A DNA stretch of 64,000 nt from Amoebophrya sp. A120 (taxonomy: Eukaryota; Protista; Dinoflagellata): positions 15,686,142-15,750,141 of the forward strand of contig CAJINV010000001.1 in the NCBI GenBank assembly GCA_905178155.1, written 5' to 3'. This document shows positions 19,301 to 63,800 of the stretch, in pieces (position 1 is the first letter of the stretch; every line of letters begins with the position of its first letter). The position numbers and the translations under genes were made by a program. A model generated the notes under the pieces. It did no database searches. It saw only the letters and a program-made list of their open reading frames with translations, and had not been told where the DNA came from.

Positions 19301-21972
19301 GTCCGTCCACGAAACTCATTGCTTCGTAGGGAATGCGGTTCGCGTCGTCGATTAGGAGCAAAGTAGGATTTTTCGTCGGGGACCATTTCGTAAGCGGCCC
19401 TTCCTCAATCTCCCCCATCATCAGCAAAACAGGTTGCTTCGAGTGCTTTGCGGCAGTCAACTGGCCGAGGAACGCTTTAGTAGTAGTATTCGAACTAGCA
19501 CCAGCAGAGGACGGCATTTTTCGAAACCCGTTGGCAAACTCGATAAAAATGGACACCTCCGTTAGTGATTTTTTTCCTTTGGCACTACCGGTGGAGGAGG
19601 TCTTCTGTTGTTCACCACCATGCTCTTCCGGATCGAAGAGTTGCGCCAGCGTCTTTGCAGCACCAACGGAGTTCGAAACCACAACCGGGCCAGGAACGTG
19701 CGCGAATGGATCTATTTTTACGTCCGCGTTCTGTTGATCTACTTTTCCCGTTGAGGTGGATATCCTGCTCCCAGCCGCCGGCGCTCCCTGCCTGTCCTGA
19801 GCTGTACCACTGGACGAGGCTCCTCCTGTGGCCGAATCACCATCGGCTTCTCCCGCTGCAGCTGCCCTACGTTCGATTTCGCGCAGGGACGGCGCGGTGG
19901 CGAAATACGCTTCTGCCGTCTCGAAGTAGTGTTTGTAGCATGCTGCGGACACCGGCGCAGACTTGTCGAGGCCGCGCGGGCAGTAGCCCTCCTGTGCAGT
20001 GTGAAGGTAAAATCTAAGTTTGTGGGTCCACTGTTCCTCATCCTGGCTTTCCCCCTCGTCAGACGCAGCTGGTTCTTCTTTATTTTCATCGGCCGCGTCA
20101 ATTTCATTTTCTTTCTCTGCGAACCGAGACTTGAGTCCGCTCAGAGACATCTTCAGCTTCTTTTTCTTCCGCATTTTTCCTTCAAACAGTAGCTGCCCGA
20201 GAGAAGTAGAGCCTCCGCCTGTGTTCCGCACAACCTGGAAACTTATCGCGCCATACGTGATACTTTCCCCAATCCGGTCGTTCATGGGTGCCGGGCAGTA
20301 ATAGCAGGTGTTCAACCCGTCGGAATCGACGTGCATCAGCATCACGATCGGGCGGTCACGACTCCACGCCTTCAGCTTTGTGCTCTGGTAGCCGGAAAAG
20401 AGCACGCAGCCGATTCCTTGTGACTCTTCCTCGGCACCGCAAGGGGGAAAAGGCAGACATTCCGGGCGGAACTCGAATTCGTGCACGAGCATCGGACACG
20501 TGGTCCCGCCCGGAACGTTCTCGCTGCCCAACTGGTCCCCACTCCCGAGAGCCAAGCTGCCGCTGAACCGCGTCCTCGAATAGGTTAGGTTCAAGCGCTT
20601 CTCGGAGCCAGCGAGACTCAAGTCGTAGTAGGTCGGCTTCTGCCGCGAATACACGACGAGGAACACTTATCAAAAGAAAAAAGCTCGTCACGATCACTCA
20701 TGGGCATGTTTGCAATACAAAATTGTCTGTCATGCGTAAAAATGCATCACAGCCACACTTCATAAGGGATTTCCCTAGTGTTTCTGCAATACAAGGCGAA
20801 GCTGTGATGCTAAAAAAATTTGTAATGCAAAACCTGCAACTTAGCGACTGTGACAAACTTTTTTCTCCCCATAACACTTTCCCGTCCTTCAACACAAAAT
20901 CTTCGCCGGGGTTCATGTATGGCGTTCTCAACTGTTACAACATTCACAACTGTTACATGAAATTTGTCACGCAAGAACAGCAACAGTGAAAGTGGCAATA
21001 TTCTTGCAGCTTTCGCATCACAGATTTTCCACAGATCATCATGCTGGTTAGCCCTTCGAAAATTTGTCATGCTAAGCACCTTGATCAAGTGGAGCGAGGC
21101 GGGTGGGAATTGTGCATCACAAATCCGTGTAACAGTTGAGAATGTAACAGTTGAGAACGCCATATCATGGGGCGGAGCATTGGGGTTTCCAGATCCACGG
21201 GAGGCTGGCAAGTCTTCAGCAAGGACTTCCCACTTTGCAAAACACCCGGTTTGGTTAAGTACTTCAGCGCCCGCTGGACCTTGTCATAGGCAGATTGCGT
21301 GTCGAAATTCAGGTCCGCAACCTGCTCAGCGAATTCCAGCCGCTGGGCGTACGTCTGGTAGCCGCAGTCGTGGAGAAGTGCAATGTTGCCGGACTTCGAC
21401 GTGCGCTCCTTCTGAAAAACAATTTCCCCAAAGGGTAGTGGTTGCGGACCGGTGCTGATGGCGTTATTCGCCTCTCCATTGCCATGTCTACTGTTGCTGT
21501 TCGTGGTCCCTTCTTGATGGCCTTGGTGTTGTGTCTGTCCAGGCGAGACGACACGAAAAATGAACACGTTCGAGCGGTATTTTTCTGCGATCTTTGTACT
21601 TGCCTCACCAGCGCTCAAGCCGCCAGCAACCGCAGCTTGCGCCTCCTCGTCGTGATCCGTGTTGCTGAGGTCGAGAACGCAGAAGAGAACCGCGGTCCCT
21701 TTTTTTCCCAGGTTATGCAAGTCGTTCCCACTGCTCCTACAAGTCATTGTTGTACCAGGCGAAGATATAGAAGCAGACGTATTTATTTTCAAGCCTAGCA
21801 CTTTCGAAGCGAAATACTCTTGAGTACAGAATACTAATTCCGCGTCGCGATTCCACGTATCGGTTCTGGCCGCCTCAATGGCCGATTTCAAAGTTGTGCT
21901 TCTTTTACCGTTCAGGGACTGGAGCCAAGAGGAGGGCACGCGCCCCCGCTCACTCGATTCCTGGGCACCCAT
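13385..21972 (-). CDS. Giant (~2442 aa) protein with internal 2H phosphoesterase (2'-5' RNA ligase-like) domain and C-terminal CxxC motifs; six non-canonical introns
   Basis: ORFs 21085-21972, 20698-20931, 16896-20666, 15421-16899, 13940-15460 and 13551-13736 join in frame when each TIR element plus one 5-bp TSD is removed. 8588-1259 = 7329 nt = 2443 codons ending in TAG at 13387-13385. 2H motifs: RHSAVCLIPP..WMPHVNLLFPF and FHPHLTLGQ. Confidence 0.8.
13434..13582. mobile_element. TIR element / non-canonical intron, family B
   Basis: TATGCATTGCAAAAGTATCGCACT...AGTACGATACTTTTGCATTGCATA; TSD TGTTT/TGTTT. Removal gives AREN-NYLAKF in frame. Confidence 0.9.
13685..13951. mobile_element. TIR element / non-canonical intron, family A
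   Basis: TATCAAATGCAAAAATGTCTGGGTCTGGAA...TTCCAGACCCAGACATTTTTACATTTGATA; TSD CAAAC/CAACC. Joins ASGL-VGDKE. Confidence 0.9.
15427..15567. mobile_element. TIR element / non-canonical intron, family D
   Basis: TATCCCCAGAAAAAAACCCATG...CATGGGTGTTTTTCCTGGATA; TSD CACGA/CGCGA. Joins DADIA-SNYIL. Confidence 0.85.
16817..17035. mobile_element. Degenerate TIR element / non-canonical intron, family D-like
   Basis: CATCCTACAGAAAAGCACACCCAT...ATGGGTGTGTAAACTTGTTTTCTGCAGGATA; TSD CGACG/CCACG. Joins AMIV-ELAAK. Confidence 0.75.
20668..20873. mobile_element. TIR element / non-canonical intron
   Basis: TATCAAAAGAAAAAAGCTCGTCAC...GTGACAAACTTTTTTCTCCCCATA; TSD ACACT/ACACT. Joins DGKV-FLVV. Confidence 0.9.
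20918..21164. mobile_element. TIR element / non-canonical intron
   Basis: Perfect 22-bp TIR TATGGCGTTCTCAACTGTTACA...TGTAACAGTTGAGAACGCCATA with a sub-terminal repeat of CAACTGTTACA; TSD TCATG/TCATG. Joins LRPM-NPGE. Confidence 0.92.
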
Positions 21973-22969
21973 CTTCTTACTTTGGGTGACGTAAGCGTGA
22001 GTTTTTGTTTTACATAGGGCGCTGTGACAAAATTACTGCTCCCCTGCTTCAAATTCAACACAACCAGTCTCAATAAAACATAACAAAATAATACTCAGGT
22101 AGTTCAGGATCGATTTCTTTGTAGTTAGTAGGGCGTATGTATGAAATTCAAAACTAGCGCTTAATAGCGCGTATGTATCATGTGACCTGCATAAACTAAC
22201 ACAAAAAAATATAAAGTAAAAATCACATCATCAACAACGACAAAAAAATCAAAGCAGCTGCAAGCTTCGGCTTACTAACTTCATTGTAAAGTGAGCATAT
22301 GTCAATGAAAATACTTGGCAGAAACCGAAATACAGAACCACAACCAGATTGATTGCGTGCGGCTTCCACGACCGAACTTTGGAAGAACCTTGATTCCGTT
22401 TTCTATTCTATTCCTTTTCAAGCCTGTCAAGAAGAAGACCTTCCTGGTGCTCGTGGTGTTTTCCTATTCCGAGTAACGCTCGTCCACTTGGGTTGGCGTA
22501 TTCGTATACAGCGACACAACAACACTACACTTTGCTCCACAAAGACATTCATCCACCGATCGCTAATATTTTTTTGCTGCAAGAACCGACCACCTACGAT
22601 CATGCTGAGCTGATTAAAGAAATGCCGGTATATATTAACTGCCAATAAAACCATGTTGCCGAAGCCGGAGGAAATGTTGAAAGGTAGAGGTTTCATCAAT
22701 CGCACATCTTCCTCGAAAGGACACAGTATATCAACGTAGCCGATAGACTGCGAGTACGAAGCAAATCAATGTGTGTAACTCTGCAAATCGCCACAAAAAT
22801 GATGTAGGTTTGATATTCTCATCTGACTTTCGTCCCTTCCGCGCGGCCTTTAGCGCCGGCCTGGACCGGCAAGAAGTCTGCCCAACTTCATGATCATCTT
22901 CATGCACACACATGATGGTTGCGTTATTCATCTTTTTAAATAGTACCAATAATAGCCGCCTCAGCGGGG

Positions 22970-23663
22970 GTAGTGAGGTCATGGCGGTTTTTTTGTCTTC
23001 ACGCCAAAAACACAAGCGACTTCTCTGCCCACCATGCCATCGCGATTAATGTTATGCACGATGGCACGGCGGTCGCTAAAAATGACGATCCAGAACTGGC
23101 CTCCATTTGGTTTCGAATCGAAAAACCTTCCCCGCATGCTGTGGCCCCGTCAGGCCCCACCCCAGGGTCGGCCCCATCGGCCCCCAAATCGGGCCCATAG
23201 CATGCGGATTCGCTTTTTGCTTTTGGCGGACTTTGCTTTTTTTGGTTTTTTTTGTTAAAATGCCGCATCTTCTGGCCTTACGTCCGCCTCTGAAGTGGCT
23301 GACTTTGGTGGCGTCTTTTGGGCGGCCCAAATGTGGGCCAAAATGGGGCCCATACCATGCGGCTTCGCTATTTTTTTCGGAGAGCTGCTTTTTGGGCGCC
23401 CCTTTTGGGGCGCCCGAAACCGCCAGAAACCAAGGCGGCGGGCGCCTCAGAAGGGCGCCCATTTTGCCGGCTCCCCTGCGTCGTTTTATCAAATGCGAAT
23501 CGATAGTTTTAGACCGGGCTTGTTTGACGGCAAAGCCCCGGCCGCTTGATAATTGAAAATTTTTTATGCCCAAAAACACTTCCGCCCGCTTGAAAAGTGC
23601 CGGCCGTTTTGCGCACTGCCTGTCAAAAAAGCCGCTAGATTAGAACGCTCGCGACCTCACTAC
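22970..23663. mobile_element. Putative non-autonomous TIR element in intergenic region
   Basis: Inverted repeat GTAGTGAGGTC (22970-22980) / GACCTCACTAC (23653-23663) brackets a compositionally odd stretch of repeated GGCCCC(A)/GGGCGCCC motifs and T/A tracts. No TSD found. Confidence 0.4.
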
Positions 23664-23968
23664 TTGTTGGTCATGGAAATCGATCCCGCACACACGTAAC
23701 ACGATCGCCCCAAATGAAGCCTGTTCCATGATGAAAATGGCTGAAGGTTCTGACTCAAATCGACCCCGTGACATGCTGTTTCGTTCGGATTTTACCTAGA
23801 CCAGCCGTCCTTGGTAAAATCTTGAGCAAGGACCACGGTCCTGAGTAAAATCGTCAGCCAGGCTCTGTAGCTGGTGACGTGATCCTTCTCTCAAGTGATC
23901 CCAAGTAGCTCTCCAGATTGTCCGCGCTTTGGGCAGGTCTCCCGACCTATACCAAGCCCGGGTCAACA

Positions 23969-24090
23969 CTTTATCTGGGACCCCGTCCCCTGATCAAAAC
24001 TTTATCTGGGACCCCGTCCCCTGATCAAAACTTTATCCGGGTCCGCCGTCCTTGATAAAATCTTTACCAAGGCCCGAGGTCCTGAATAAA
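23969..24090 (+). repeat. ~31-bp tandem repeat (2 identical + 2 degenerate units)
   Basis: CTTTATCTGGGACCCCGTCCCCTGATCAAAA at 23969 and 24000, degenerate copies at about 24031 and 24062, related degenerate units at about 23790-23850. Confidence 0.8.
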
Positions 24091-24724
24091 CTAGCTACCT
24101 ACGAAGCGGATCTAGACCCTGGAATGTGTTGAATCTGGTGAGACTGATGCAAGAATCTTGATGAATTTGGATGATTTGAGCTACAGGATGTAACGCAGCA
24201 AGAGACTTGCGTCACTTGCTTGCTTGCTTGCAATTGAGAGAACTCATTGGAAAGCTGTTGATAACGAGCTCAGTGCAGCAAACGTGCAAACGTGTGTAAG
24301 TGTGTGCGAGTGTTCTCAAGTCCACTAACACTACATATGAAGTGATATGCACTAGCCAAGCATAAAACTTAAACGTGGTAAGGCTGAGCATACATAATGA
24401 CTCACTGTCCTCCGCGCTGTTCTGCTTTTGGAATCAAAACTGCGCTCTCGCGCGGGTGCGTGTGCGGCACTTCCAAAGCTGAAGACCATCACGATCAAAA
24501 TTTTGACTGAAGTAGGAGTAGCTCTGGCTCTACATAATTTTCAGTTCTTTACCTTTTACTGATAGATCACACAAATGATCAGGCTATGGCTGCGCTGTTT
24601 AGTTGACAGACCAGAAAATGAAAGGTAAGAGTCCCAGACCCAGTGCGTTGTTTGATAAAATGATAATGATGGTCGCCGTGACCTACAAAAATAAATCAGG
24701 CGAAGAGCCTGCTGAGCAAGTTCT

Positions 24725-27700
24725 TTACAGGTGAAGAGGAATCTTCCACACGTTCTCGATGACCGGAAACGCACTTCCCTCACCCGGACCGCCTTCAGAA
24801 TTGTACGCGAACATGATCTGGTGAAGCAAAATTTCGTTCCATTTGTCTTTCCAGCGTTTTGCTTTGGCCGGATCCATTCGTCGTTCCTGAAGTTGCAACG
24901 CCACATGCAGGGTGAAGTCCCGCTCTAGTTCGGTAGCATCATTGAGCTTCATGTGCGAGGTCGTAATTCTCTCGGCCAAACCTTCTCGAACAGCGGCATC
25001 TAACTCGTAAGTCGCAAACTTCAGCACGCGGCGAGCCGACTCCGAATCCTCTGCCCCGTGATCAGCAACAGGCTGCGTGTTAGTTTCAAAAAAAGCTACG
25101 AACTCGCCGAACAGCTGCGCGATATCGGCCCCACTGAGGTCCCGACGCAACGTTAGTGGCTTGCACTTTTGCTGCTCTAGGGCTACTTCTCCCGAGGCAC
25201 TTCCCGAAGTATTCCCCGCGCCCGTGTTTGCAGTCGTCACGGACGCACGTCGGAGCCCCATGGAATCAAAAAGAAAATAACTCACGCTCCCCTCGGTGTC
25301 ACGTTCTGCCCCGATGGTGAAGGAGTGCGAGAAGACGTCTAAACACACCTCGTGCAAAGGGTCACAGTACAAGTTTTCACGGTGCGAAGATTTTGCGGCG
25401 GGAGCCAGAAACTTTACCTGCACCGCAAAAGCGGATAGAACTCTAGCTCCAGAAGGCCACTCTTCTTGTTTCGCCCGTGAAGAAGGCCGCGATGAAGTAG
25501 ACCCTGCAATTTGAAGGGGTTTTTCACCTCGGTCCGGTACGATTTCCGATTCCACCAGCTTTGCATTTGCTATCCTCCGGGTCGTGCGCTCTCGCAGCAG
25601 TAGGAGTTCTGACACAAAGTCAGGAACCGCTACTGGCTGCAGCACTGTGTCCGTGAACGACCTCCCCCCCGTCAGAACCCAGGAGGCCAGGGCTGCGCCG
25701 ACGTTGGCGGAAAACCGAAAATTGTGGCTGATGTCGGCGATAAACGAGTCGTAGCGAACAGCTGCCTCGTTAACCACCAGTTCCTCCAGTTTCTCTGGGT
25801 CGATTCGCATTTCTGCAAGCGAAGCGTCCGGCTTGAGCATGACGTTTTGATGCAGTCTGGCTTCTCCGTTTGTGACCTCCACCAGAGCCCCTGCACTGGG
25901 CACAGTTCCGTGGGCGACAGTGACTACAGGTGCAGGAACCGCTGGAGCGGGACCGCCCCCACGCTTGTTACCTTCTTGAGCACCCCACACAGTACTAGCG
26001 TTCTCCGTTTCAGTTGTTGTTGAAATGGACTTCACCAATGCCAGGTCGTACCAGGTCATTTCGGCCTCGTTCCGCTCTGCTCCCTCCTGCGAATACGTCA
26101 ACTCTTCAATGTCGGTGTAGAACCCGAAATTGCTTGCTAGAAAGTAAAACGCGTAGTCGGGCCGAGGGAAAATTGTCTGCTCCTTCGCGGCTTTTTCCCC
26201 GCCAGCAAACGCCTCCGTCGTCTGGTATTTGAACAGCTTCTCTGAGTACACGTTTTCGGTTATCAGCTCCGCGCGGAGATATGCATTGCAAACATGTCTG
26301 GATCTGGAGGAATGCGTATGCCTATGCGCCGGCCAACACCAGGTCACAAAAAATAAACCTGTCTGTGACTATGCAAAAGCTCCTGTTCACTTTTTGTTAA
26401 GATCACAAAGAATAAGAAAGAACGACCATCAATGTATAGCATCGATTTCCAAGAGCAGCACTCCTGAACTAGTCTACCAGTGGGGCATTGATATGATTGT
26501 CAGAGGACAGCTGCACGACAAAAACGTGCATTGTCGATGTCGTTGTCCCTTTGACCACGGCGACATATTTGCGTTTGTGTTTGATAGGAGAAATGCACTT
26601 GCGATGGTCGGCGTGGAAGTACTTGGCGCGACCACCTGCTGGCTTAGCGCAGACCCTTTTTTGAACAGACACTCTGTCCACAGCTTGTAGACCTGCTCGC
26701 GCCATTGCGTTTCGGAAATCACTTTTCTATTTGTATTTTCATCCAGACCGACATTATCTACGTATTCTACGTCATGTCTGGGATGAAACGGCCTTCCATG
26801 CGACTCAAACCACCAAGGGAAGGACCGCAAAAGGGTGCGAAAGGGGTTCTGCGTTACGGGGCCAGCTGTTGCTGTGGTCTGACTTTTCTGCTGTAGCTGC
26901 TCTAACCGCAAATCGTTTTGAACGACGGATCGGAAAAACCGCAGGATGTTGGCTTTCGGAAAGACAGCTTGCCAGAACCTATAGAAAAAATCCTTCGGAT
27001 AGTAGGCAGCCATTTGCAGTCCGGCGAGACCGCGCGTAGGTGTGCTGGTAGAGGCTCCGCCTGCCCGTCGTGAAGACGCCAAAAGCGGCTGCACGGCTTC
27101 CGCTGCCCGGGCCCCCAGAAACGTTTTCCGTGCCTCCGCAGTCCTCTCTGGAAATTCCACTAGCCTGCCGCTTCGCAAGTCGTACCAGTAAGGGAGCGCC
27201 GGTACCTCGTAGTCATTAGAGTAAAACGGGCCATTGTCGTTCGCGAACTTCTTCGGGTAGCAATGGCCGCCACAAAAATGTGTCTCAACCTCGGCTGCCA
27301 CTCCGATGGGCACGCGAGGAAAGGAGCATGAAGAGATGCCAGTTGTTGACAACGGTGGTGCTATTGACAGCGTCGAGGAGTCATCTTCCATGTTCGTCGT
27401 GTAGGGTCTGCTGACTGCGTCTCTCGCAAAATGATCCACCACGTGGTGCGAATATAGGTCCACATGCCCCTCGTCAAGAGCGTCTTCTACTTCTCTTCCG
27501 CTTGTGGTCCTCGTTCCACAGTTGTCTTGTGCACTTCCCAAATACCCAAACTGTCTGATTGCACTTTTGTACACGTTGCCACTTTTCTCGTCGGTTTTCA
27601 CGAATGGGTGATCCAAAGCGCGTGCAAGCGGGGATCTAGGCAGTAGGGGTCCTCCAAAACCAAAAAAACTTCCTTGACCCTCCGGTCCCGTGCCGGCAAG

Positions 27701-32575: not shown

Positions 32576-33507
32576 GTAGTCGGGCTGCAGTCGTTATCGT
32601 TCAGGAAAGGAAAAGGTTGGTTGCCAGATCATAATCAATACGCCAACGGTATGAAGACTATGACAACATTCAATTAACGTAGTTCCTTCTTCCTGCTTCG
32701 ATTCAACAGTTGCGATCGCTGTACTAATGTCTAGGGACGTGGTTTATTTTTCGTGTGTGTGATCATTCGCCGTTGAAGTTGTACCCGTGCCCTTCCATGC
32801 AGCATTATTCTACTATTATTGATCGCACGCTAGTACAGACAAAAGATGAATCCTGCTTTCACGTCGACCTGGATGTGCGACAAAGTCAAACCGAAAGTTA
32901 AAAAGCAACAAGAAAAATCAAATCAAAAATGATAACGCTGCGCGGTATGGATTTTTTGATCCGCGATCGTTGTACTCTTTGTCTTTCTTCATCTTGTTGC
33001 CAACGTGGACGAAACTAGAGACCCTTCGGATCGCAGTTTTCTCTCTGTTACAACTGTTGTGGTTACTCAGATCCACCCGCCCTGGCATCCTGTGGCTATC
33101 GCAGATGGCGCACTTTGAGCCTGAAGAACTTAGAACATCGAAGTTGTTGGTGCGTCCAAAGAAAACCTCGGCAAAAAGCCACTCAGACTCAAGAATACTT
33201 AAGTAGTACTTACGGACTCTGACACCCGTCGCCTTTGCGGCAACTGAGTGAATTTTGCATTTTATTCCAGGGGAGAAGATATTCATTCGATTTCAGTGTC
33301 TATTCCAATTACGCGTGCGCTAGCCCAACGGAGACGAACAGAAAATGCTCGATGAAGAAAGCAATGTTCTTGAGTAGCACCAGGTTTATCCAAGGGCAGC
33401 TACAAAGAAGTCGAAATGAGTGGCCCTCGAATAAATGACAATGTCGTATCGTACTTCTGCACTCCGACTGTCACTGTGCCGACCTCCATCCGTCACCTAA
33501 AATGCAT

Positions 33508-36500
33508 TCATGTCCATACCGTCCTCCACGGAGCAAGTAAATGAACCATCATGACCACACTACTGAGAGACAGGAGGAAAGCCGTCGAGAACTCTTCTGC
33601 ACGTCTCCTCCCCCCGGTCGCTCCTGATGCATCTATCGCTAGCGTCACACCCGACTCGCCGTTTCCGAGAGAAGGGCCCGCGTTTCCCGGTAGAATATTG
33701 CTTCCCGAAGAGGATCCAGTGCCGGAATCTGACGACCCACTCGATGTGGGAGGGGTGTAAGTCATCGGCGTGATGCTTCCCTCCGACACCGTGGCGACCG
33801 CAAAGTCCGTCCCTAAATCGGAAACCAGCTGCGTTTGCAAGTTCTGCTGCAAGGCTGTCAACCCGGTGCTGGGAAGCGTCTGCAAAGTGGACGCCAGCGC
33901 CGATGCGTCGGAAGTACTCTGTGCGCGCACCTCGTAAATAGCTTCCAGCTGTCTCTGGTTCTGCGTCTGCAGGTTTCGTATACTTGATTTTATCGACGGG
34001 CTGCCTTGTTGCTCTTGGTGTGATATTCGTTCTGCTTTTCCGGTTCTTGATGCAGTGTGTGACTGTCCAACATTTCGTGCACCATAATCATCTCCTGCAG
34101 GCTTTACGGATATTTCCCTTTCGGTTGTTCTTACACCATGCTGAGTGTAGTCATCCTTATCTAGTACGGCATCATTGCTAACTTGGGTCTCAATCTCTTC
34201 CAGATTTCTCACCGTGTAATGTTGCTGTGAGCCTACGACCCCTGTTAGCACAGCAGGGGACATCGATTCTGCCAGTGCTTTCGGTCGCGGCTCCGGCTTC
34301 GTCTTCCTTATGTCCAACCGGTCCGGAGCCGGGTACCGCTTCCGACTTTTCCTGTTCTTCTCGCGATCGACAGGGAGCTTCTGGGCGTTTCGCATCCCTT
34401 TGAAGACAACGGAGAACATTTCTTGCTGCTTCAGAGCCCGCGTGGTACTACCAGTCCACCTTAACATTCGATGGCCCTCGGTTGGATCGGCGATGCCCGC
34501 GATTTGGTGCTGGCCGGGAAAGACGCTGGAGGATTCTAACGCTGGCTCCACCGAATCGACGATCTCGTCGTCCCGGAGCATTTTCGACGTCGCCGCGCCA
34601 GTTTGCACAAACCGCACGATCAGCACGGTGATTTGCAGCGGAGACACGTTCAACGTCGCCGCCAGGGCCGTCGCGATACTCGGGCCGATCTGGGTGGTCA
34701 GCGCGCTGCTCACCGTCGACACGTCGTTCTGCATACTGATGATCAACGAGCCCGAGACCGACGGACACTGCAGGTCCGCGGTGTTGGTGCCGCCCCCGGC
34801 GGCGACGTTGGCCGCGGTCGGGTTGGCGCTCGACACCGTCGCGCACCCGCCCCAGGGTTTCGGCGTGGTGGTGCTGGAAGTTGAGGACAGCGTGGTGGTG
34901 ATCCGGGTGTTGTTCTTGATGCTCTCGGCCAGGTTCATCTGCGCCTCTATGTCCGCCTTGGTCACGATGGTGGTACCCGCCAGCGCGACGGGCGAGCAGT
35001 AGTCCTGCCACTTGGGACATAAACCGCAGGCCATGTAGCAGGACTGGTACTGCGCGTTCGTCCAGCCGAGCTGCACCGCGTCGACCGCGCACTTCTGGTC
35101 GCAGAGCTTGCATTCCGGCGGCACGCACATCCCCGGTCCTTGCAGCGGCTGACAGAAGTCCGCGTAGTGGGCGCCGCAGGACTCGGGGCACGAGGGGTAC
35201 GGGACGGCGTCGATCGCGTATCTGGTTCTGCAGGCCGTCGGTACATTCGCCGGGTCGTACTGCGTGGTCGTCACGGTGGTTGTGGTCTGGCCTCCTGACA
35301 GCGTGGGTGCCGCTGTGGTGCTGCAGGTCAGACACGGCAACGCCGGCGGTTTGGCCGTGGTCGTCGCCGAGGGGTCGTAGTTCGGGTCAAAGTGAGGCGT
35401 CGTGGAAACCGGCGTGTTGCCGCAAAACGACCCGGCGGGACAGGTTTCGCAGCTGGCCCAGCAGGTCTGAGTTATCCAGTGCAAAAGTATCGCACTGGCA
35501 CTCTTCTCTTACAAATACTGGTCTTGCATGACATATCGTAATCTAATCGAGTTCTTTAGCTTTACCTGAATCTGCATGACCAATTGATTCCATTCTTCTT
35601 TTTGGAAAAATAATTGCGATATATACTAGTACGATAGTTTTGCAAAATGCATATGGATGTCGAAGTACGGGTTGGCCTGGAATTGCGAAACGCAGTTCGT
35701 GTCGCATTCGTAGCACCCCGGGTCCACGCACATACCCGGGCCGGCGTTGGTCGAGCAGAAGCGCGCGTAGTACTTGTTGCACGAGGCTGGACAGTAGGCC
35801 GGGGTGTAGCCCCAGGTGTAAACGGTTTCGCAAGCCTTATCCTGCACCACCGAACTGCAGATGACGCAGTAGTCTTTACACTTTTGCTGTCGGCAGTCCG
35901 CGGTGCTGCAGTTGTGCGAGTCCATGCACTGCTTGCACGTCGAACTCACACACATCCCGCTGTTTGTCGCGCAGTAGTTCGGAAAGAAGTGCTGGCATAT
36001 CAAATGCAAATATGTCTGAGTCTGGAAGGGCGTAAACTTGTCATGGATGTTTTCCATGACCCATGAGGTCTGGAATGCGGGGCCTACCATGACAGACTCT
36101 GTGCGGTCTCTGCCATGCCCATCCTGCATGAGAAGCTTCCTCCCAACTTGGTCGAAAGTGGACAGCTTTTGGGACTTATGCAACACAGAGCTTTGCATGA
36201 TTGAGATTTAGCATGACAAGTTGGAATCTTCCAGACCCAGACATATTTCCACTTGATATGGCAATAGGTCGGGCAATTTGCGGCGGAACTTTGTCGCTGC
36301 AGGCAAATCTCCGTGGACCGCCCGTAGAAGGCCGCGACCGGGAAACGCGTTTCCTTTTCCACCTGCGAGAGCGCAAGTTCGTTCTCGTGCAGCCCGCCGT
36401 ACAGGTGTGCGGACTTCACGCGGTTGCACACCTCGGAAAAGGAGTTGCACTCGACCAGCTGCGTGTTCGCGATGTTGGCAGACAGGTCGTTTGTATTGGG

Positions 36501-38842
36501 AACGAAGTTCTTGTTCGCGTCACACCGCGCGATCCGCACTTCCTGCCGACTGCCACTTTCGTATCGGCCGTACACGTCGTAGTAGTCCGTGCCGCAGACC
36601 ACGCGGTAGCAAGACGCGGCGATCCGGTTGTTCGCGAACAGCGACACTTGCGTACTGGTGATGGTGCCGAGAGTATCACAGGAAAAAAGTGTTACAGTTA
36701 CACATTTGATGCAATTACAGCATCACAAAGTTGGTCCGCATAGCAAAGAAAACTTGTGATGCGCAGACTCTAAGGGAAAACACCTATGAAATGGGGCTGG
36801 GAAGCATTTCCTGCATGACAGAGGTTGTCTGTCTTGCTGGTCTTGCATCTGAGTGTGTAACTGTAACACTTTTTTCTCACGATAGAGAGTGTTGAAGCAC
36901 TTGCTGTCCGAAGTCCCGGCGTTGAACATCAGATTCTGCAGATACGCGTTGGTCAACGCACAGTCCCCGGTATTCGCTGAGTACGCGTACCGACGCGGGC
37001 AGTGGTCCAGCATGCCAAAGCTCCCGCCTTTCTGCGCGTTGTTCGCCCAGTATTGAAACTCGGTCGGCAGCGTTTGCCCCGTGCCGCTGTCCTCCAAGGC
37101 GCAAAAGCCGAGCTGGCGCCCCCGTCTATGCGGAGCGCAGCCCGTGTCGGTGGGCACCGTGCAATAGAAGTTCCGATCCACCGCTACAGCGGAATCTGAC
37201 ACGCACTCGTCGGTCACGAAAGCGCAACCGCGTTTGTAGCCCCAGTGCAGGTTTTCAATCGCGATGGTCGCGCGACTGTAGTCCGCCTGGTACCACCCCG
37301 TGTCTTCCGCGAAGGCCAGGGAAATCGTGGAAACGAACGTCGCGTCGTCCGGATTCCCGGTTGCCGCAAACATCTCGTTGCTGTGTATCCGCTGCTCCCA
37401 GTGGTTCCCGTAGGCAGAGCAGCGACTGGTTGGCGTGTTCTCCAGTGGCATGCCGGTGAGAGAGGGGCAGTTGAAATATTCCCTCGCTTTCTCCACCACC
37501 TTCGGGGTGCGGATCTCGTACTGGCAGTGCGGGTGGTCGGTCAGGCAGTTCTGGAAATTCGCCCCGTTGTACTGTTGCTGCAATGCCTTGGAGCCGTAGG
37601 GGCACGTGCACTGGTTTAGCTTGAAATTCCCGTGCTCAACAATACCGAGAACTTGGCCCGCGGAACCGTCCTCATGCAGGCCGGGGTACCTGCGTGAAGT
37701 ACTTGACAAAAATCTTCATGTTTCAGCTGTGGTTACCACAAAGCGTCGTTAACAAAAAAATTTTCCACCTTCTGAGCGAAAAAGACCGACTTTCATCCAG
37801 TCCTATTTTCGAAGTTTGCACCTTGCTAGCTACTTAGTACGTCTAGTAGAAGAGAACAATGATGTTGAAGCGCCGGATTCCATATAAAGTACCCCATATA
37901 AAGTACCATCGTCTCCCCGTGTTGTAGGGTAGGTTCCACCTTCCGTAGCAGTCGAACGCATAGTAGCTTCGGTCTTGCAGCTTCAGCGTGCCGTCGTCGT
38001 TCACGAAGTTTGGCCAAAGCAACTCGAAAAAAAACAGCACGTGCCCGATCTCGTGCACGACGTTGGCATAATTGAAGTGCAAGTTTCGCTCGACGTTCAA
38101 GTCGCCGTAGCCGCTGTTCGTGCACAGAGTGACCGACCCGGCGATCGGCCGCCCGCACTGGTCGACGTAGCAGGAGGCGGCCGCGGCGAGCGTGTTCCCC
38201 GTACAGAGATACTCGTCGTCAATGTCGATGAAGAGGTACAAATCGATGTTGTCGACGAGGAAGTTCCTCGGCGTCGAACTCGCATCCAACGTGCTGGTCT
38301 CGTACCCGCAGGCGCGGAAAGCGCTATCGCGGTCCAAAGGGGTGCTTTGCGAGTACCGACGGGTCTTCAGCGCGCGCGACCAGAACGCGAGCGAGTTTTT
38401 CATAAGCGTGGTCTCCAGGTGGTTGGTCCAGCTTGCGGGAGCGTTGCCGCGGCCGTAGGAGACGATTTCGTACCTGAAGATGCATCAGGAAAAGACATAA
38501 AAAGCAAAAGGCATGAAGCAAAGCTACGTGCTTCATGAAACAAAAAACAAAAACTGCTTCAATTGTCATTGTTTCAACGTCAACTATATCGTTATCTTAC
38601 CCTATCCTTATCGGCCCCCAGCTCGAGCCAGTATGTAGCTGAGGACAGGTAGGCGCTGTCGTCGACGCGAGAGATCTGCCATGGTAGTGCACAGGCAACG
38701 GCTCCTCCATGACGCGCGGTGCTGTCGCAGTTACGAGTGTAACAGAACGTTCCAGACACAACACGCCGCACCAGAAAAAAATGCAAGCAATCAATAACCG
38801 TTCCAAGCGTTGCGGGAACGTGGCCAAGACGAAAGACTCCAT
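33508..38842 (-). CDS. Leishmanolysin/GP63-like zinc metalloprotease (M8) with Cys-rich repeats, Thr-rich stalk and C-terminal hydrophobic (GPI-like) tail
   Basis: PIRI, LAAAASC..DQCGRPIAG, HEIGHVL (HExxH), AREYFNC, HWEQR, NEMF, ISLAFAEDTGWY, WGYKRGCAF, DHCP. Exons join through two GT-AG introns and three TIR introns (36674-36884, 35998-36258, 35473-35653). Confidence 0.88.
35473..35653. mobile_element. TIR element / non-canonical intron, family B (opposite orientation to 13434 and 42395)
   Basis: TATCCAGTGCAAAAGTATCGCACT...AGTACGATAGTTTTGCAAAATGCATA; eroded TSD TGAGT/TGGAT. Joins PYFD-(I/T)QTCW. Confidence 0.82.
35998..36258. mobile_element. TIR element / non-canonical intron, family A
   Basis: TATCAAATGCAAATATGTCTGAGTCTGGAAG...CTTCCAGACCCAGACATATTTCCACTTGATA; TSD TGGCA/TGGCA. 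Joins PTYC-QHFFP. Confidence 0.92.
36674..36884. mobile_element. TIR element / non-canonical intron
   Basis: TATCACAGGAAAAAAGTGTTACAGTTACAC...GTGTAACTGTAACACTTTTTTCTCACGATA; TSD GAGAG/GAGAG. Joins CFNTL-GTITS. Confidence 0.92.
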
Positions 38843-40497: not shown

Positions 40498-44257
<3,760 letters not shown>

Positions 44258-45447: not shown

Positions 45448-48400
45448 TCACAACGAAAATTTCGAATCCCTTATTTGTTCAGCACTCAGGGCAAGGTCTC
45501 CCACGTAGTACAAGTCTTCTAGCTCCTCATCCGATAGCCCCATTAGTTCTGTCTCGTGACACAAATGCTGCGACGACGGCCAGGCGCGCTCGCGCCCCCG
45601 GGGACTGAGCATGTTTTCAAATGCAAATGTGTCTGGGTCTGGAGGAAACTTGTAATGCTGCCTTGGGACTAGTGAATGCTTTGTAATGCCCAGCCAAGCA
45701 TGAGAAATGTCTGCGCTTCGTTGTGTTGCGTTTTTCGCATGACAGCCTGCGTTATTGCATGACAGACAAAAGGGCCTCTTCTTGGACACGCATCACAAAC
45801 TTTTTGGTCATCCCAGACAAGCATGACAAGTCTCGCAATCCACCAGACCCAGACATTTTTGCATTTGATACACGTACTCCTCGCACAACCGAAAAAGGTC
45901 GTCCACGTGCTCGAAGTCTTTCGCGTATTCCTCCTGCACAATGACAACGGAAAGCCAGCCAAAGTACACGAGTTTGTACCCAAAAGCATTTCCCAGCAGT
46001 TGCAGCCCCCGTGCGGACGCGGAGTAGGCCTTGTGGTGGCCATGTTCCCTTTCGTACACTTCCGAGTGTTTTTGTTGGGCATTTGTCACCGCGGTTCTCG
46101 TATCCAGGAAAAAACACCCATCCCCATCCATATTTTGCATGACAAACACGGCAACTGATGCATGTTTTGCATGACAAATTGGATGTGGATGGGTGTTTTT
46201 TCCTGGATATCTCGTCGGCCTCTCGTACTTGGGGATCAGGCTGAGACCGATCGGGTATCAAAAGGAAAAATCCCCCCTCCCCCTGTCGAAATGCAAATCT
46301 GTGATGCGGGATTTGTCTACACAAATCGGCTTTGTCTTGCAGTAGAGGACTGCAGGCAGATACAGAGCCTGAGTAGGGGCGTTTTGGTGTAGGCGCCTCG
46401 CAAGGCGGGCACTTCCTCTGTAGGCCATCCAGCATTACAAATTGCCTGCAGAACGCAGCGGGGTTTTTCGATTTGCATTCTTGCAATGCAAAGACGATTT
46501 GTGGTCACAAACCAGCATCACAAATTTAAATTTTCACAACTGTCCCGTGTTGGTACTTATGGGGAGGGGGGATTTTTCCTCACAATATCGGAACTCGGTA
46601 GCGGTCAGGATAGAAGTAGCCGTTACTGGTTTGGATCAGCAGTACCCGGGGTTGAAACCATTTCGCCAGGAGTAACCTTCGAAGCACGTGCCAGTCGTAG
46701 CCGTCGATGTGTAAGGAGAACAGCTCAAACTTTGTCGGGACGGATTTTGACTTCAAAAGGTCCAAAATGTTCTCCGGCGTCACCTTGGCTGCGCTGTAGT
46801 CAATGCGGCTCAGGGATCCTATCATGTCAATCATCCGCCCGTCCCAGTTTTCAAACGCCTGCAAATAGCGCGTCTGGTAGTCGCCGGCCAGGCGGCCGAT
46901 GCCAATATCGACGAAAAATTTCGCGTAGGGTGAGGGAGAAGCTGAAGTGGAGCGGGACAAGGCATTTATTTTCTCGCAATTGAAAATGGAAGGATAGAAG
47001 TGTGGTTGCGGCTGAGCAGGGGAGTGATTTGGTCCAGCGCCTTGGCCTGACTTGATGTTACTCATCCGACCCGTCCTTTTTTCCTCGTCCTTCTCTTGTT
47101 GCAAATAGATAGTCCGGTAGACATTGACCAACACAGAGTCGAGCGCGTCCAGACTGTATCGACAGTCCGGCAGCGGAATGGATATCATTTGCAAAAACGT
47201 CCCCACCCCAGAGTCAAGATGGGGATTTTGCAACACAAACCTGAAAGTTTTGGGAGCCACGCATGACATCAAGTGGCAGGCTGTAGTGTAATGCAGTTTA
47301 GCAAGGGACGCCGCAGAAAAAATCCATCTCCTTATCCTGTTTACAGCATTACAACTTCCAAAACACGATAGGAAATGCTTCTCATGGGGATGCGCATTAC
47401 AAATGCTCTTGTGCTTGCAGATCTGCATGACAACTCTGGGGTGGGGATGTTTTTGCACAGGATAATGGAGTAGGCGTCGTCCGCCCACAGGTCGATTTCC
47501 AATTTGGATGTAGTCGTGCCCTTGTGTCGTGTCCTCTCGGGACTTACTTTCGAAGACCCTTGCAGTGCCGACGCGAGATGCCCGTCAGGAGTAGAGCAAT
47601 TTGCCTCTGTTGCAAGCAATTTCTGTGCGGTTTCCACACTGCGGATGCGGTTCTGTAGGCACGACGCGTAGGACTTGAAAACGAAGCGGTTTAGACTCGT
47701 TTCGCGTGCGATCGCGCGTTTCAGCGCCTCCTTTCCGAGTAAGTGGACGAAGTGAAACTTCTTGCCGAACAAGTGCAGCGCCCTCACACCGAGGGCGAGG
47801 TACACGAGCAACGCGTCCAACTGGCTAAACAGAGATCGCCGTTTCTCGAACACATTCGTGATCGCGGTCAGAACTTTTTCGACCAGGAGCGCAGCTCCTG
47901 AAGCAGGAAGATGAAGACCTCCGTTCGACGGTGTTGATGTGGCAGGGATTGGGACACCAACGGGAAGAAACAGGTCAAGCGAAAGTTGTGCAACCGACAG
48001 AATCCACTGTAGATAGGAATTTCTTGCAACCCACAGAAAGCGCCGGTGTCTGTGGTGCCCGTCGGCAGCCTCAATGGTGTGCGTCGGCGCCTCTCCCCGC
48101 TTCCCCAGGAGGCGCCGCACGGCCGCTGGCGGCTCGACTAGAGGAAATGTGTGCGACCAGGTAGTCACTTCGACGTCCTTGTTCTCCTCGTGTGCCGCAG
48201 ATAATTCAATATTGCCGATGTTGTCGTCCATTCCGCAATGCAGTCGTGTGTTCAGGTCTGTCGTGTATTTCATCGAGTGCGGGTCTCCTGGTGCGGATAG
48301 AATCGACGACTCCGCCTTCCGCAGCGCGCCGCCGTCTCGGTTGTGGTAAGGAAGGACCAAGCTGCCGGGAAAATCGCAGATGTGGCGCACGCCGTTCAGC

Positions 48401-51400
48401 CCGTGCTCCGTCACATTCTGCATACGCTCGATGAGAAAATGCTTCTCCGACGGGCCGCGGGCGAGGAACTCTAACCTGGATGCACGTCACGAAACTGTTG
48501 TGGGCGTCCACAACTTTTGGAAAAACAAAAAGTGAGAATGACCATCACGGATAAAACAACTAAACTACATTATAAGAATCGCTCTAAATCTAAGTGGAAA
48601 ATCAAAATCAGTGCAAAAGATGGACAAAGAGCTACAATTGTGTTTCGAAGCAGCCGAACCTAAACAAGTGTATGAAGTCTCAGTGATGTTGTTCTTGTTG
48701 AAAGAAGCAAATTATACCGTATTTCAATACCGAAGTATTTGGTCCCGAACGTGAACTGTCATGGCATTTAGGCGGGTGTAGTAGAGACTCAGGCCACGAT
48801 TCAGAGCCGTGGGGATTTCCGGCGTCACGGAAAGTTGTCTTTCTTTCGACCTTTGCCAACTTCGATTGCCGAGCGAAAAGCGCCACAAATCCCACAAACT
48901 ACTGGCGAATCCGAATCTCCCTTGGCCGTAAAGCTTCTTCAACTTTTCTTCGACGAGCAAGTGGGCCTCCTCCGTCTCTGTGTGGTCCAAAAATCCAAAC
49001 GTTTTCCAAATCACTGCGATGTCTGCGGGCTCTAAAAAAGTTCGTTTCACTTCGTCAATCAGCAAAAGCCCAAGGAGAAAGCGGAAAAGCGGCTCAACCA
49101 GGAAGAGCTGATGGCTTACTTCTCCATCTGTTCGCTTTCCTTTCACTTTTTCCCAGGTATTCCTCGTGGTCGTGGCGGAGAAACCGGACAAAGTTGAGGA
49201 CTCTTGGTCTTTATCTGCGTTCACAGCTGTCACGTCACGCAAACACAAGCGACGGACCATCAGCTCGTGGTGCACGTCTTCTGGCTCGGTGTTAGGCCTA
49301 GAAGAAACCTCATCGAAAAAATCGAGCGTCTCCGAAATCACGAAGCTCTTGACCAGAAAAATCAGCGAACGCAGGTCGGAAACTCGTACGCTACTGAAGT
49401 TGATATTATTACCGCGTGAAGCTGTTTCGGTAGTTTCCGTAGCCGTACCCGTACTGCTTGGTGCGGTGTTCGCGAATTCGATAGCGGACGACATTATATT
49501 CCCACCAGATGATAACATTTCGTCGTCGTCTACCTTCGACGCTAAAGGACCGGTCCGCCCCTGCTGCAATGCCACTATTTCTTGGTCGGGAACAAAACTA
49601 TCAGCGGCAAACGCCGAATTGCGGCGCTGGTTCTCCTGCGTCCGAACCGTTCTCTTCGGAGAGCGTTTGCGGCCACCCCAGTGACTGTGACGGGCGCACT
49701 GACTCTCTCGACACGGGGTGTCATAGGCGTCTTGTTTTCCGCGGTCGCCCTCGTGGTCCGTCGAACTGGGACGGGGGACCACAAGCGGCCCTGATTTTGA
49801 TTGTGAGGACTGCGTGCTGCTTCTGGTGTTTCCATCCCTATCCCCAAACTCCCAATCCCGAATGGCTGTGAACAATGCTCCTTCTGTGCCAATGTCGTGC
49901 TCATCAATCGCGTTCAGCAGTTCCTCGCTCAGGCGGGCACTGCGTAGCTTCCGACAAAACGAGTCCTGCCCAGAAGAGTTGTTCCGCCGGCCGTGTGTTG
50001 TTGATACTCCTGCACCGGGTGCAGAGGCGACAGCGTCCACAACAGAAGTTGATGTCGGGCTAGCTGCAGCTTCTGTGCCTGCGTTTATTCGTATTTCCCC
50101 TTTGCTCATCTTCAAGAGCTTGCGCAATTCCTGCACTTTGGCAGCTGCGCGTGTCGACGCAAAGAGTTGTACCGTCGAGAAATTGTCCACCTCCTTGTTC
50201 AGATCGTCCCCCGCCCTGATTTCGGCTTCGGCAAGCGTCTTTGCGAATGTCCGCGCGTCTTCCAGCTCTTGCGGATCGAGCAAATGCGCAACGCTTTGGA
50301 TTGCCCGCAAAACCTCCGTCTGGTGCTCCGGCGCGTACCCCAGCACGGACAGAGTTCCGATCACAAAAGCGACAACCAAGATCGCGACGCACACGTACTG
50401 ATGGAACGCCAGTGCGCGGCTGCGTCCTCGTGTGCAGCACACACACCGTTCCACTTTCCGACAGGTATCAAATGCAAAAGTGTCTGGGTCTGGAAGAGTG
50501 CAACTTGTTATGCTCAATCTGACGCAAGCAAGAATCTGTGTTGCATGATTACCAAAAGTCGTCCAGTTAGTTTTGACCAAGTCGGGAGGGAATTTCTCGT
50601 GCAGGATAGTCATGAGAGAGATCGCACAGAATCTGTCATGCTAGGTCCTGCATTCCAGGCCTCATGGGTCATGGAAAAGCTGCATGACAAATCGCGCACT
50701 CTTCCAGACCCAGACATTTTTGCATTTGATAACAGGCCTTTCGGCACCACCGCATCTTCCTGCTGTCAGGACTGTACCAGGGCACCTGCGTATCATAAAG
50801 AAAAACTCCCCCTCCCCATATTGAAAACGCATCCGTCTGAAAATTTGTGATGCACATTTGTGACCTCAAATCTTGTCTGTCTTGCAAGAAGGCAAGTCCA
50901 GAGAGCCCCCTGCATTTTGCAGGCGGTTTGTGATGCTGTTGGGCTTAGGGCATACACGCTTGTCATGCTAGGCGCCTACGTCAAAACCTCTCGACCGAGG
51001 CTTGACATATGCCTGCAGTCCTCTACTGCAAGACAAATCTGATTCGTGTACGGAAATCCAGCATCAGAAACTTCGTTTCGATATGGGGAGGGAGAATTTT
51101 TCCTTTTGATACTGCGGCTCCGCCCGGGCCTCTTCCAACCGCCGTCGCTCGCGGTCCTGCTGCAGAGCCTGCTGCTGGTCTTCGGGAACGGACCCTGGTC
51201 CTGGTTCGGGAGGTACAACCCCGAACGGAACCGGGTTGGGCGGCATTCTGATGTAGGTCTTCTCCGCAGAGGAGGCTGCAGATTGTTGTAATACCGGAGA
51301 AGCAGATCGCTTGCGCGGGAACGGAACTCCAGTCAGCCCGCCTCCAGATGGTGCCTGAGGCCGCAACAGCTCCTGCCTTTGGTCGCGGGCGGAGGGGCTC

Positions 51401-60822: not shown

Positions 60823-63800
60823 TCACAGCACTTTATAGTCCCGCTTGACTCCCTGCTTCCAGTCCTGCGTGGGTAGTTTTACCGACAGGTAGACGTCCTT
60901 TTCCTTCCTTGTCTCTACGTTGTCGAACTCGAAGTCTCCCCAGAAGCGGAAAAAGCCTTCTCGCTTCTCGTTGTCAAACACCATTGCACACAGTGTTGCG
61001 GAGTAGTCCTCTTGGAAGGTTGGGTCGTTCAAGTGCTCTTGCAGGGTCAAACTGGGAATGGGCCGCAGCAGTGGCGGCTCGCCGAATAGATGGAAGAGGT
61101 CAGAGACGAGCACGCCATTTGCGGCTGGTCTCTGTTTTCGTGTCCTCGCGAGAAAGTCCGTGCTGTGCTTCACGCGCCACTTGGAGTTCGACGGTTTCTG
61201 TAGTTGTTTTTTTTTCAAACAAAATCACACACCAAATGAGCAGCGCTCTAGCCGTCGTGGTCGCACTAGCTACTCTTCACAAGGATCATGACACCGCGGG
61301 GGTCCGTGACAGCAACTACTAAACGAACCAAGAACTACCGGGAAAGTAGATTTTATTCAACGACAACGACAAGCATGAGTGGGGTAACAATTGATTCAAC
61401 TAAGTCGGATCGCCGACTTAGTCGTCCGTCCGGCCGCACGGACGACTAAGTCGGACTTTGTCGCGGGAAACTTCCTCCTTCAGGAAATCGAAGAGCCGAG
61501 AACCCCGACCCGGGGTCCTGCCGTTCCAGCATCTGAAAACCGTATGAGAAAGTGCACTTTTGTAAGCGGATTTTTGCGCTTTTGGCGTGTTTTTTTTTTC
61601 AGGGGAGCATTCCGAAAAAAAATGGCAAATGCTGTTTTTTCTGCATGACAGTTTCTGTTTATGCATGAGAGATTAGCCCTTTCTGCAATTGAAAAAAACT
61701 AATTTTCCTTCATTTCCTGCAAAAGCAAAAAAAAGCGAAAGTCCGCATTTTTCATTTGAGTACTTTTTTCATCTGGAAAAAGTGCAACCTTTTTCAGCTT
61801 CGCATTCACACTCGGCTCGGGGGGGTTGCGCGAATCCCCAGCTCGGGGGGGTTGCGCGTTCGCCAGACGCGCAACGAACGCGAAACCCCCGGAGCTGGGA
61901 ATTCGCGCAACCCCCCGAGCCGGGAATTCGCACAACCCCACCGAGCCGAGCTGGGAATGAAGCTGAAAAAGATTGCACTTTTGAAAGTGCGGGCTTTTGC
62001 TTGCGAACGCGCAACCCCCCCCGAGCTGGGAATGTGAAGGCGAAGCTGAAGAAGGTTGCACTTTTTCCAAATGAAAAGTGCGGACTTTTGCTTTTTTTTG
62101 CTTTTGCAGGAAAGGAAGAAAAGTTTGCTTTTTTTATTGCAGAAAGGGATAATCTGTCATGCATAAACAGCAACTGTCATGCATAAAAAGTAGCTCTTGC
62201 CATTTTTTTTCGGGATGCTCATGCCCACCCGAAAAAAAACACACCAAAAGTGCAAAAATCCGTTTACAAAAGTGCATTTTCTCATAAGGTTTTCGCGTGC
62301 TGTAACGGCAGGACCCCGGGTCGGGGTTCTCGGCTCTTCGATTTCCTGAAGGAGGAAGTTTCCGCCCGCGGCAAACTCCGACTTAGTCGTCCGTGCGGCC
62401 GGACGGACGACTAAGTCGGCGATCCGACTTAGTTGAATCAATTGTTACCCCACTCCAATGAAAAATTAATCCTACCATGAGTGTCATGTCCTTTCCCACG
62501 GGCGGCGGCCCGATGGTTTCCGGATTGTACTGCAGGTGGTTTCCGTGCACGATGGTTCCCCCCTGCACCGGGTGTGCCTCCTCCACCACGAAGGTGGAAT
62601 TGGACACTTCCGCGGAGTAGATGTACCCCGGGTCCGAGATGGTAAAGCAGTTCGGAATCCCGATTAGATCCTGGATGTACACGGCGTGCAGATACGCCAG
62701 TGCGTGCTTCGCCGAGGGCAGCAGCAGCATCTCCCGGATCAGCGTGTTGGTCACCACCGCCTCGCAGCCGGAAACCTGGCCGCGCTCCCCGTTGTCGATG
62801 TACTGCCAGAGCACGGACACGCCGTAGGCGTTGAGCCCCATGTAGGCGCCCTGCCCGGGGTGGGTGTAGATCATGGACGCGCAGGGCTCCAGGAACAGGC
62901 CCTGGTGGAAGGACAGCTCCTTCGAAGTGAACAGAATGTTCATCTTGCGCATCTCCTGCATGAAGTTGTCCAGGTTCGCGGACAACATGGGGATCAGGAA
63001 GTCCGTCACGCGCTTTTTGCACCACGTCTCCAGCCGGTTCTGGTCGTCGATACTCATCTTGTTCAGCGCCGGCGTCTGCCCGTTTCCGGACTCCTCGGAC
63101 CCGATGGAATTCCGGGCGTGCTCCGCGGCGGACTCCGTGCCGGACTCCAGTTCGGATTCGAGGGACCGGTTCGAGGACAGAATCACCACGTCGTGCTTCC
63201 CGTCGTCGAAAAACGCAGGAGACTCATCGTTCGTTTGTCCACTGATCACACGGTGGTTGGGGTGCATGCCGCCGTACAGCGTGGCGATTCCCGTGCAGCC
63301 CACGTCGAAGTCGTTGCGCTCGTATGACCCGTACCTGACCGCGTCGGTGCGGCGGCCCGCCTGTGAGAAAGTCAATTGCTCGATAGAGAGGCGAATCAAA
63401 ACAAACTTGGAAACTAGAATTTCGGTTGAGAAGCAAACACAGATAGGAATTTGCCATGCTCAAGTGAACGATATGTTGAGCAGTAAACTGTACTCGAGAT
63501 TTCACTATGAGTCTGCCAGTTTCGATACAAAAAAAAAGTTGTCTCACCGAGCTAACGATGGTTCCGACGGTCGCGTTGCGCTCGATTACTAGTAGGTCGT
63601 CCTGCTCGCCCTCTGCGTTCTCCGGATGACTTGCTAGAGGCGGCCGGCCACCATCCAAGGAGGCTTTTGAGGACGTCGTCTTCCCAGCAAGCAGCACGGA
63701 GCCCCCTCCACCATAACTGTCGATCCCGGAAGGCAGCGATCGCCTCATGGTAGCCGTCATCCGGCTGTCTTTCGACACGGAGGGTGGCAGGTTGGCTACG

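Follow-up and report, generated by a model that had tools for sequence, protein, structure and literature searches.

The 64-kb stretch of DNA analysed here (the window, 64,000 nucleotides of contig CAJINV010000001.1 of the dinoflagellate Amoebophrya sp. A120) carries protein-coding genes interrupted by short elements that fit the published A120 introners in their ends, their direct repeats and their removal. Within these elements recurs a short motif, GCATBACA (B being C, G or T), common to elements with quite different terminal inverted repeats (TIRs). Among the genes of the window, an M18 aminopeptidase has its best named relative in Amoebophrya sp. A25 (63% identity), a long leishmanolysin-like (Peptidase M8) gene on the minus strand at 33500-38800 contains three introners, and a DEAD-box helicase gene contains another. 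A search of the window against Rfam returned no match.

The window elements measure 109 to 332 nt, start with TAT, end with ATA, and have a 5-bp target site duplication (TSD) flush with their ends on both sides. The ones that bear the motif belong to the non-autonomous class of TIR elements and duplicate 5 bp of their target. We distinguished 14 TIR types, named here by letters. The features are as follows.

13434-13582: introner of type B (GTATCG core), 149 nt, TSD TGTTT, one exact octamer; 154-nt skip (with one TSD) in one X6 contig.
13685-13951: introner of type A (GTCTGG core), 267 nt, four exact octamers, with pairs in the same orientation at a spacing of 31 nt; one X5 contig skips 272 nt.
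15427-15567: old introner with an imperfect TSD; no GCATBACAR within one mismatch (scan of 15429-15568).
20668-20873: introner of type H, 206 nt, TSD ACACT, four exact octamers; frame restored on removal.
20918-21164: introner of type I (CTCAAC core), TSD TCATG, three exact octamers.
26280-26586: old introner with a decayed right TIR and a perfect TSD (GGAGA); it lacks exact octamers and has a single internal antisense site with one mismatch; one X4 contig skips 312 nt.
35473-35653: introner of decayed type B in the leishmanolysin-like gene, one exact octamer.
35998-36258: introner of type A, TSD TGGCA, one exact octamer and six one-mismatch sites.
36674-36884: introner of type E, TSD GAGAG, three exact octamers.
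42395-42534: introner of type B in the DEAD-box helicase gene (Pfam DEAD in an upstream exon), TSD GTTAA, three exact octamers, pair 31 nt apart.
45615-45870: introner of type A, six exact octamers, among them pairs that point outward near both ends, spaced by 31 nt.
46101-46209: introner of type F, the smallest (109 nt), TSD TCTCG; a single pair with a spacing of 32 nt, its two copies antisense to the host gene.
46256-46587: introner of type C, three exact octamers.
47183-47464: introner of type D, TSD ATGGA, five exact octamers; 287 nt (element and one TSD) missing from X3 and X5 contigs.
50466-50731: introner of type A, TSD ACAGG, two exact octamers; absent from X3 and X5 contigs.
50791-51111: introner of type C, TSD CTGCG, three exact octamers that form pairs at 32-33 nt; X3 and X5 contigs lack the element.
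61377-62455: foldback of 1079 nt with non-TAT outer ends, three exact octamers and one variant, 20 nt apart in each arm.

A scan of both strands yields 44 matches to GCATBACA in the window (24 on the plus strand and 20 on the minus strand), against a mean of 5.66 and a maximum of 12 among 100 dinucleotide shuffles. Fourteen TIR elements hold 41 of these matches and the foldback holds the other three, leaving none in the rest of the window. An earlier note on this DNA had listed positions of the octamer and claimed an excess over chance: its coordinates are all exact on re-scanning, and the excess is borne out. The foldback itself apparently lies within a GT-AG intron (about 61203-62477, minus strand), and its inner arm ends look like introner TIRs, as if the end of an old element had been captured.

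At six window elements (those starting at 13434, 13685, 26280, 47183, 50466 and 50791), the element and one copy of the duplication are absent from RNA-like contigs, by which we mean contigs from a single sample whose runs we take to be RNA; none of the listed runs that contain this sequence is recorded as RNA. The skips at 13434, 13685 and 26280 are each seen in one contig, the one at 13685 having only 20 letters on its short side, and these contigs leave most of 14000-22700 without cover, a region that includes the elements at 15427, 20668 and 20918. Raw RNA run X9 placed only 47 reads, on repeats. Contigs of run X1, whose cover is even like that of DNA and whose kind is unrecorded, run into the elements, and thousands of short contigs pile up on them. 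Ends of the GT-AG kind are possible in just 18 of 343 element copies.

The wider element set came from 137 related loci of one other assembly, fetched by a single TIR pattern without reference to the motif and merged into 132 stretches (501,653 nt). Given this choice, type A is over-represented, and the loci hold the same families as the window rather than a second lineage. Twelve window elements are 83-97% identical to copies in these loci and are therefore repeated in the genome. Our element detector found 344 elements there, with 12.1 octamers per kb and a perfect flush 5-bp TSD in 269 of them. The exact octamer is present in 325 of the 328 elements that we kept (316 with at least four of five TSD bases, plus 12 from the window). 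A scan that ignored the motif, using TAT..ATA ends, a perfect TSD and frame restoration with no filter for an A-run, retrieved 213 elements, against 0-4 for six control termini; 210 of the 213 contain an exact GCATBACAR, and 178 contain a same-orientation pair 30-34 nt apart when one mismatch is allowed.

Across TIR types, terminus positions 4-10 share a limited repertoire of variants, and the two arms of an element are frequently unequal there (39% identity at position 7). Positions 16-28 are specific to each type, about 90% identical between arms, and often made of a 6-nt repeat. Two TIR patterns searched in viral contigs gave no match. One 2.46-kb TIR-bounded stretch of the related loci (L073, 476-2934) is a type A introner whose left TIR is interrupted by about 2.2 kb of inserted DNA; the insert has a 415-aa open reading frame (ORF), for which there was no Pfam match.

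In coding DNA and in canonical introns the motif is at background. In 168 kb of coding DNA we observed 11 occurrences for 10.7 expected, a figure that led us to reject the idea that exons avoid the motif, even though the window has none outside elements for about 4-5 expected. Eighteen canonical introns of the window were picked by eye and three that failed an end check were dropped; the remaining 15 have three near-sites for 3.7 expected. The density in the elements exceeds that in canonical introns, one of the comparisons by which the earlier note proposed to judge its signal. The non-coding, non-repeated DNA of the loci has 85 matches where about 19-20 are expected, and the motif-bearing segments of this class that we inspected look like old or low-copy elements. 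Several non-repeated segments that look like introns, and in which no TIR pair can be recognised, carry a same-orientation pair 29-35 nt apart, some of them apparently of GT-AG type (L024 455-553, L034 4541-4746, L062 4438-4614 and L015 3340-3493).

Two further stretches of the window have no motif site. At 16821-17036, an apparent GT-AG intron on the minus strand has ends like decayed TAT-type TIRs, its donor being formed by G plus TAT; it is possibly an old introner turned canonical. At 22943-24300 lies a different repeat, with 31-nt tandem units at 23957-24049; RNA-like contigs end loosely at 22943, and single contigs skip 1198 or 1435 nt.

The octamer extends to GCA(T>A)BACAR, hence GCAWBACAR, in T-rich flanks. 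On 19 subfamily consensuses we counted 107 sites within one mismatch, against 3.7 in shuffles, or about three per 100 nt of interior in either orientation. Copies in these 19 subfamilies differ from their consensus at 3.7% of the seven core positions and at 15.6% of other interior positions, about a fourfold difference in counts where copies are related and events are not independent. Motif position 5 departs from this, differing at 22.5%, with 207 changes among C, G and T and 15 to A. Judged from the sequence, this pattern is that of a recognised site with one free base. On its reverse strand the motif reads TTTGTVATGC followed by A or T, which hints at two half-sites around the free base and presumably recalls the animal Sox-Oct composite DNA element only by coincidence.

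The sites are also spaced, a property that the earlier note had singled out for testing. Same-orientation pairs peak at 31-33 bp: with this range, which was picked after inspection of the data, 10 of 13 family representatives have a pair, against 1.6 on average, and never more than 7, in 20,000 null draws. When one mismatch is allowed, 13 of the 14 TIR types have one. The number of pairs grows with element length, from one at 109 nt to three at 280-320 nt, and the spacer length is constant in 83% of 695 cases compared with 75% of 894 control intervals. The DNA following the two sites of a pair is no duplicate (identity 0.11-0.41), and we reject an origin of the pairs by tandem duplication.

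Could the motif be a functionless leftover of one ancestral element, or of an internal duplication? All types share their termini and TSD length, so a deep common ancestry is likely. However, among 18 representatives with TIRs removed and motif sites randomised, only 2 of 153 pairs align above a z score of 4, both within one type; the dissimilar DNA after paired sites speaks against internal duplication; and the core changes four times less than the DNA around it, with one free position. The conservation pattern largely refutes a functionless leftover, which we regard as very unlikely. Recent common ancestry of one family, which by the earlier note would undo its reading if it explained everything, does not suffice in the light of these alignments. 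Its description of the families as otherwise unrelated applies to the interiors, where no homology is detectable, and fails for the TAT...ATA termini and flush 5-bp duplication common to all. Its central claim of a common cis-signal is supported, given that the motif is element-specific, constrained within families, free at one position and paired at a fixed spacing across TIR types without interior homology.

Does this signal act in DNA or in RNA? We assigned the host strand with a codon model, which made a call for 244 of the 328 elements (209 calls match the majority of their locus and 2 contradict it). Octamers in these elements lie on the transcript strand 350 times and on the antisense strand 384 times, so the strand bias that the earlier note suggested looking for is not seen. 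The larger families insert both ways. Mismatch levels at sense and antisense sites are 4.2% and 3.3%, and 4.7% and 5.8% in old copies. Exact sites are confined to the antisense strand in 46 of the 244 elements and to the sense strand in 43; at one mismatch these numbers become 13 and 15, with 216 elements having sites on both strands. Whole elements fold strongly (z scores of -11.3 and -9.1), and the predicted fold context of 212 sites is mixed: 93 pair with an opposite copy, 60 pair elsewhere, 51 are open and 8 pair with a same-orientation copy. We favour a double-stranded DNA site, because the octamers show no preference for either strand, both strands are equally conserved, the fold context is mixed, and the element at 26280-26586 is skipped in an RNA-like contig despite having no exact site.

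These observations weigh on two alternatives. The first is a single-stranded RNA site, at which a factor that is Rbfox-like or reads branch points would direct the non-canonical splicing. The elements are indeed spliced out, and insertion both ways is compatible with sites on both strands, which 216 of the 244 elements have at one mismatch. The Rbfox element is UGCAUG, which the earlier note described as often overlapped by the octamer; the overlap concerns a minority, 12 of the 44 window matches and 74 of the 350 transcript-strand matches in elements with a called gene strand. Moreover, TGCATG is split 185:179 between strands in the elements, sense sites are no better kept than antisense ones, 46 of 244 elements have their exact sites on the antisense strand alone, GCAUG is missing from the transcript in 39 of the 244, and canonical introns are not above background. 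The motif core also resembles the yUnAy branch-point consensus; we rejected a branch-point role since the distance to the 3' end is not fixed, canonical introns lack the motif and its placement is strand-blind. An RNA site is accordingly highly improbable: of the two branches of the earlier note's binding proposal, the DNA-binding one fits best and the RNA-binding one goes unsupported. The second alternative is that the motif acts inside a hairpin of RNA or single-stranded DNA, through pairing of opposite-orientation copies. The strong folds of whole elements and the 93 sites predicted to pair with an opposite copy are in its favour, but 119 of the 212 contexts are not paired in this way, several families have all their sites in one orientation and fold weakly inside, and pairing alone needs no single sequence across families. 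Of all the explanations considered, we find this one the hardest to credit.

On balance, we consider it somewhat probable that GCAWBACAR forms a putative array of double-stranded DNA sites for one transposition machinery shared by the TAT-ended introners, probably an IS3EU/Ginger-like integrase or its helper. One protein would bind the two paired sites, which would lie on the same side of the helix at a distance of three turns (31-32 bp corresponds to three turns of B-DNA). The shared ends, TAT followed by an A-run from position 11, may be the cut sites, and the family-specific arms at positions 16-28 may mainly have to complement each other, so that the exons are drawn close for splicing. Transposition would continue only in copies that retain the array, and this may be why otherwise unrelated interiors keep it. 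Subterminal repeats of hAT and CACTA elements are bound by transposase, and the motif copies resemble such repeats in being multiple, placed inside the element ends and conserved relative to the interior. Transposon proteins have been described to bind subterminal motifs of miniature inverted-repeat transposable elements (MITEs) cooperatively (PMC1636448). The assignment of the enzyme is drawn from the literature: IS3EU/GingerRoot elements have TA..TA ends and usually a 6-bp TSD, Ginger2 has a TSD of 4-5 bp (PMC10045372), and in the 40 of 58 rows of supplementary file 8 covered here, A120 family 38, about 808 nt long, is listed as 'Ginger, 5-bp TSD, TA/TA Termini', with ORFs similar to Copia/Gypsy (PMC12130899). 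A second published A120 family of about 810 nt, 196, also carries ORFs.

Several points weigh against a shared transposition machinery. No transposase or integrase family appears among the 144 longest of the 299 ORFs of the loci, nor among 20 further ORFs; no autonomous element was found in the 0.5 Mb of loci, and no binding protein was found; and PMC7789003 reports no transposase in A120. Type I is the sole type without a 31-33-bp pair, its sites being about 50 nt apart, and the spacing range itself was chosen after the fact. Beyond the 31-33 peak, helical periodicity is weak (p 0.03-0.045), and a general 10.5-bp phasing is not established. Finally, the sites are spread throughout the element, and their polarity, mostly outward to the ends, differs between types.

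A motif needed for transposition alone would be expected, once the element has inserted, to decay at the pace of the neighbouring sequence. The signs on this point are mixed. In 85 copies with at least four TIR mismatches, the motif differs at 5.1%, the TIR at 14.5% and the other interior at 21.7%, which counts against a purely transpositional role. It is consistent instead with a site for a host DNA-binding protein acting after insertion, either to mark the element for precise cutting of the transcript without GT-AG or U1 small nuclear RNA (snRNA), or to set chromatin; elements would then spread by carrying that mark. Slopes within subfamilies on TIR asymmetry agree, at 0.05 (standard error 0.03) for the motif and 0.27 (standard error 0.05) for other sites, as do 73 end-damaged or partial copies, taken from 151 further matches to motif-masked profiles (at least 60% of the model covered, away from locus ends), where mismatch is 5.7% in the motif, 10.9% in the TIR and 22.0% elsewhere. 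By eye, same-orientation pairs 29-36 nt apart are kept in several intron-like segments that are not repeated and show no recognisable pair of TIRs. Both motif strands are kept equally, and U1 is reported missing in Amoebophrya (PMC7789003).

However, strictly private changes in the two best-sampled subfamilies are not less frequent in the motif (0.8% and 2.1%) than elsewhere (0.7% and 1.0%), by a measure that counts too few variable sites. Copies whose TSD is mutated do not differ (3.5% against 3.3%), and damaged-looking copies may stem from unsampled lineages, which would mimic age. The skipping of 26280-26586, which has no exact site, again tells against a mark needed for removal, seven non-coding copies keep the motif like coding ones (3.6% versus 4.3%, with low power), and exons do not avoid it. 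Copies with possible GT-AG ends show no relaxation of the motif (5.7% versus 5.0%, n=18). A host factor of this kind is thus possible, though we think it unlikely. More speculatively still, the paired motif might be a splicing mark on DNA, bound in either orientation as double-stranded DNA by a host protein, perhaps a domesticated transposon protein, that directs exact removal of the element and one duplication. Such a mark might replace recognition by U1 and GT-AG, the elements being transposons with a chromatin-level 'cut me out' tag; we would give this further step, too, rather little credence.

Introners are already known, and about two thirds of introns in this lineage are reported to have non-canonical ends, with neither U1 snRNA nor a matching transposase found (PMC7789003). 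The motif is a real, constrained cis-element of this known system, and apparently an undescribed one: the shared internal motif, its paired spacing and its strand-blind constraint were not found in the searchable Amoebophrya and dinoflagellate introner literature, including PMC7789003, PMC12130899, PMC9860276, PMC11282704 and PMC11453091, a coverage that stops short of the motif logos in PMC7789003's supplementary figures, supplementary files 13 and 14 in PMC12130899, deposited introner sequences, Roy et al. 2023 and most subscription journals. Being common to at least 14 TIR types, the motif suggests that one machinery serves many of the strain-specific 'families'. The paired site, which is defined and 40 bp long, can be used as bait in pull-downs aimed at that machinery, and the motif could serve as a tag for old introners and for an autonomous partner. 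Its retention after insertion, if real, would argue that introns are recognised on the DNA.

How does this system compare with known ones? The elements agree with A120 introners as published (Farhat et al. 2021, PMC7789003; Gozashti et al. 2025, PMC12130899) in their inverted repeat of TAT, N7 and an A-run, their short direct repeats, their non-canonical ends and their exact removal, and published family lengths of about 106, 149, 209, 252-260, 278 and 305-322 nt match the window elements. The searchable text of these papers covers termini and direct repeats; the TSD of the present elements is consistently 5 bp long and directly abuts their ends. The non-canonical introns of A25 have ends of a TTA type that is unrelated to these. 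The Rbfox element overlaps the G variant of the motif when T precedes it, but the overlap is confined to the minority of transcript-strand sites given above, the motif is strand-blind, and its C and T variants break UGCAUG. IS3EU/GingerRoot elements share the TA..TA termini, and the 5-bp TSD falls inside the 4-5 bp range of Ginger2 (PMC10045372); the usual 6-bp TSD of IS3EU/GingerRoot differs from the perfect flush 5 bp found in most introners. A further parallel is with the subterminal motifs of MITEs such as Emigrant/Lemi1 (PMC1636448), where a short motif likewise occurs in several copies and both orientations in a non-autonomous TIR element. The introners differ in that one putative site is common to at least 14 TIR types with different arms, in the fixed 31-33-bp pair, and in being introns as well.

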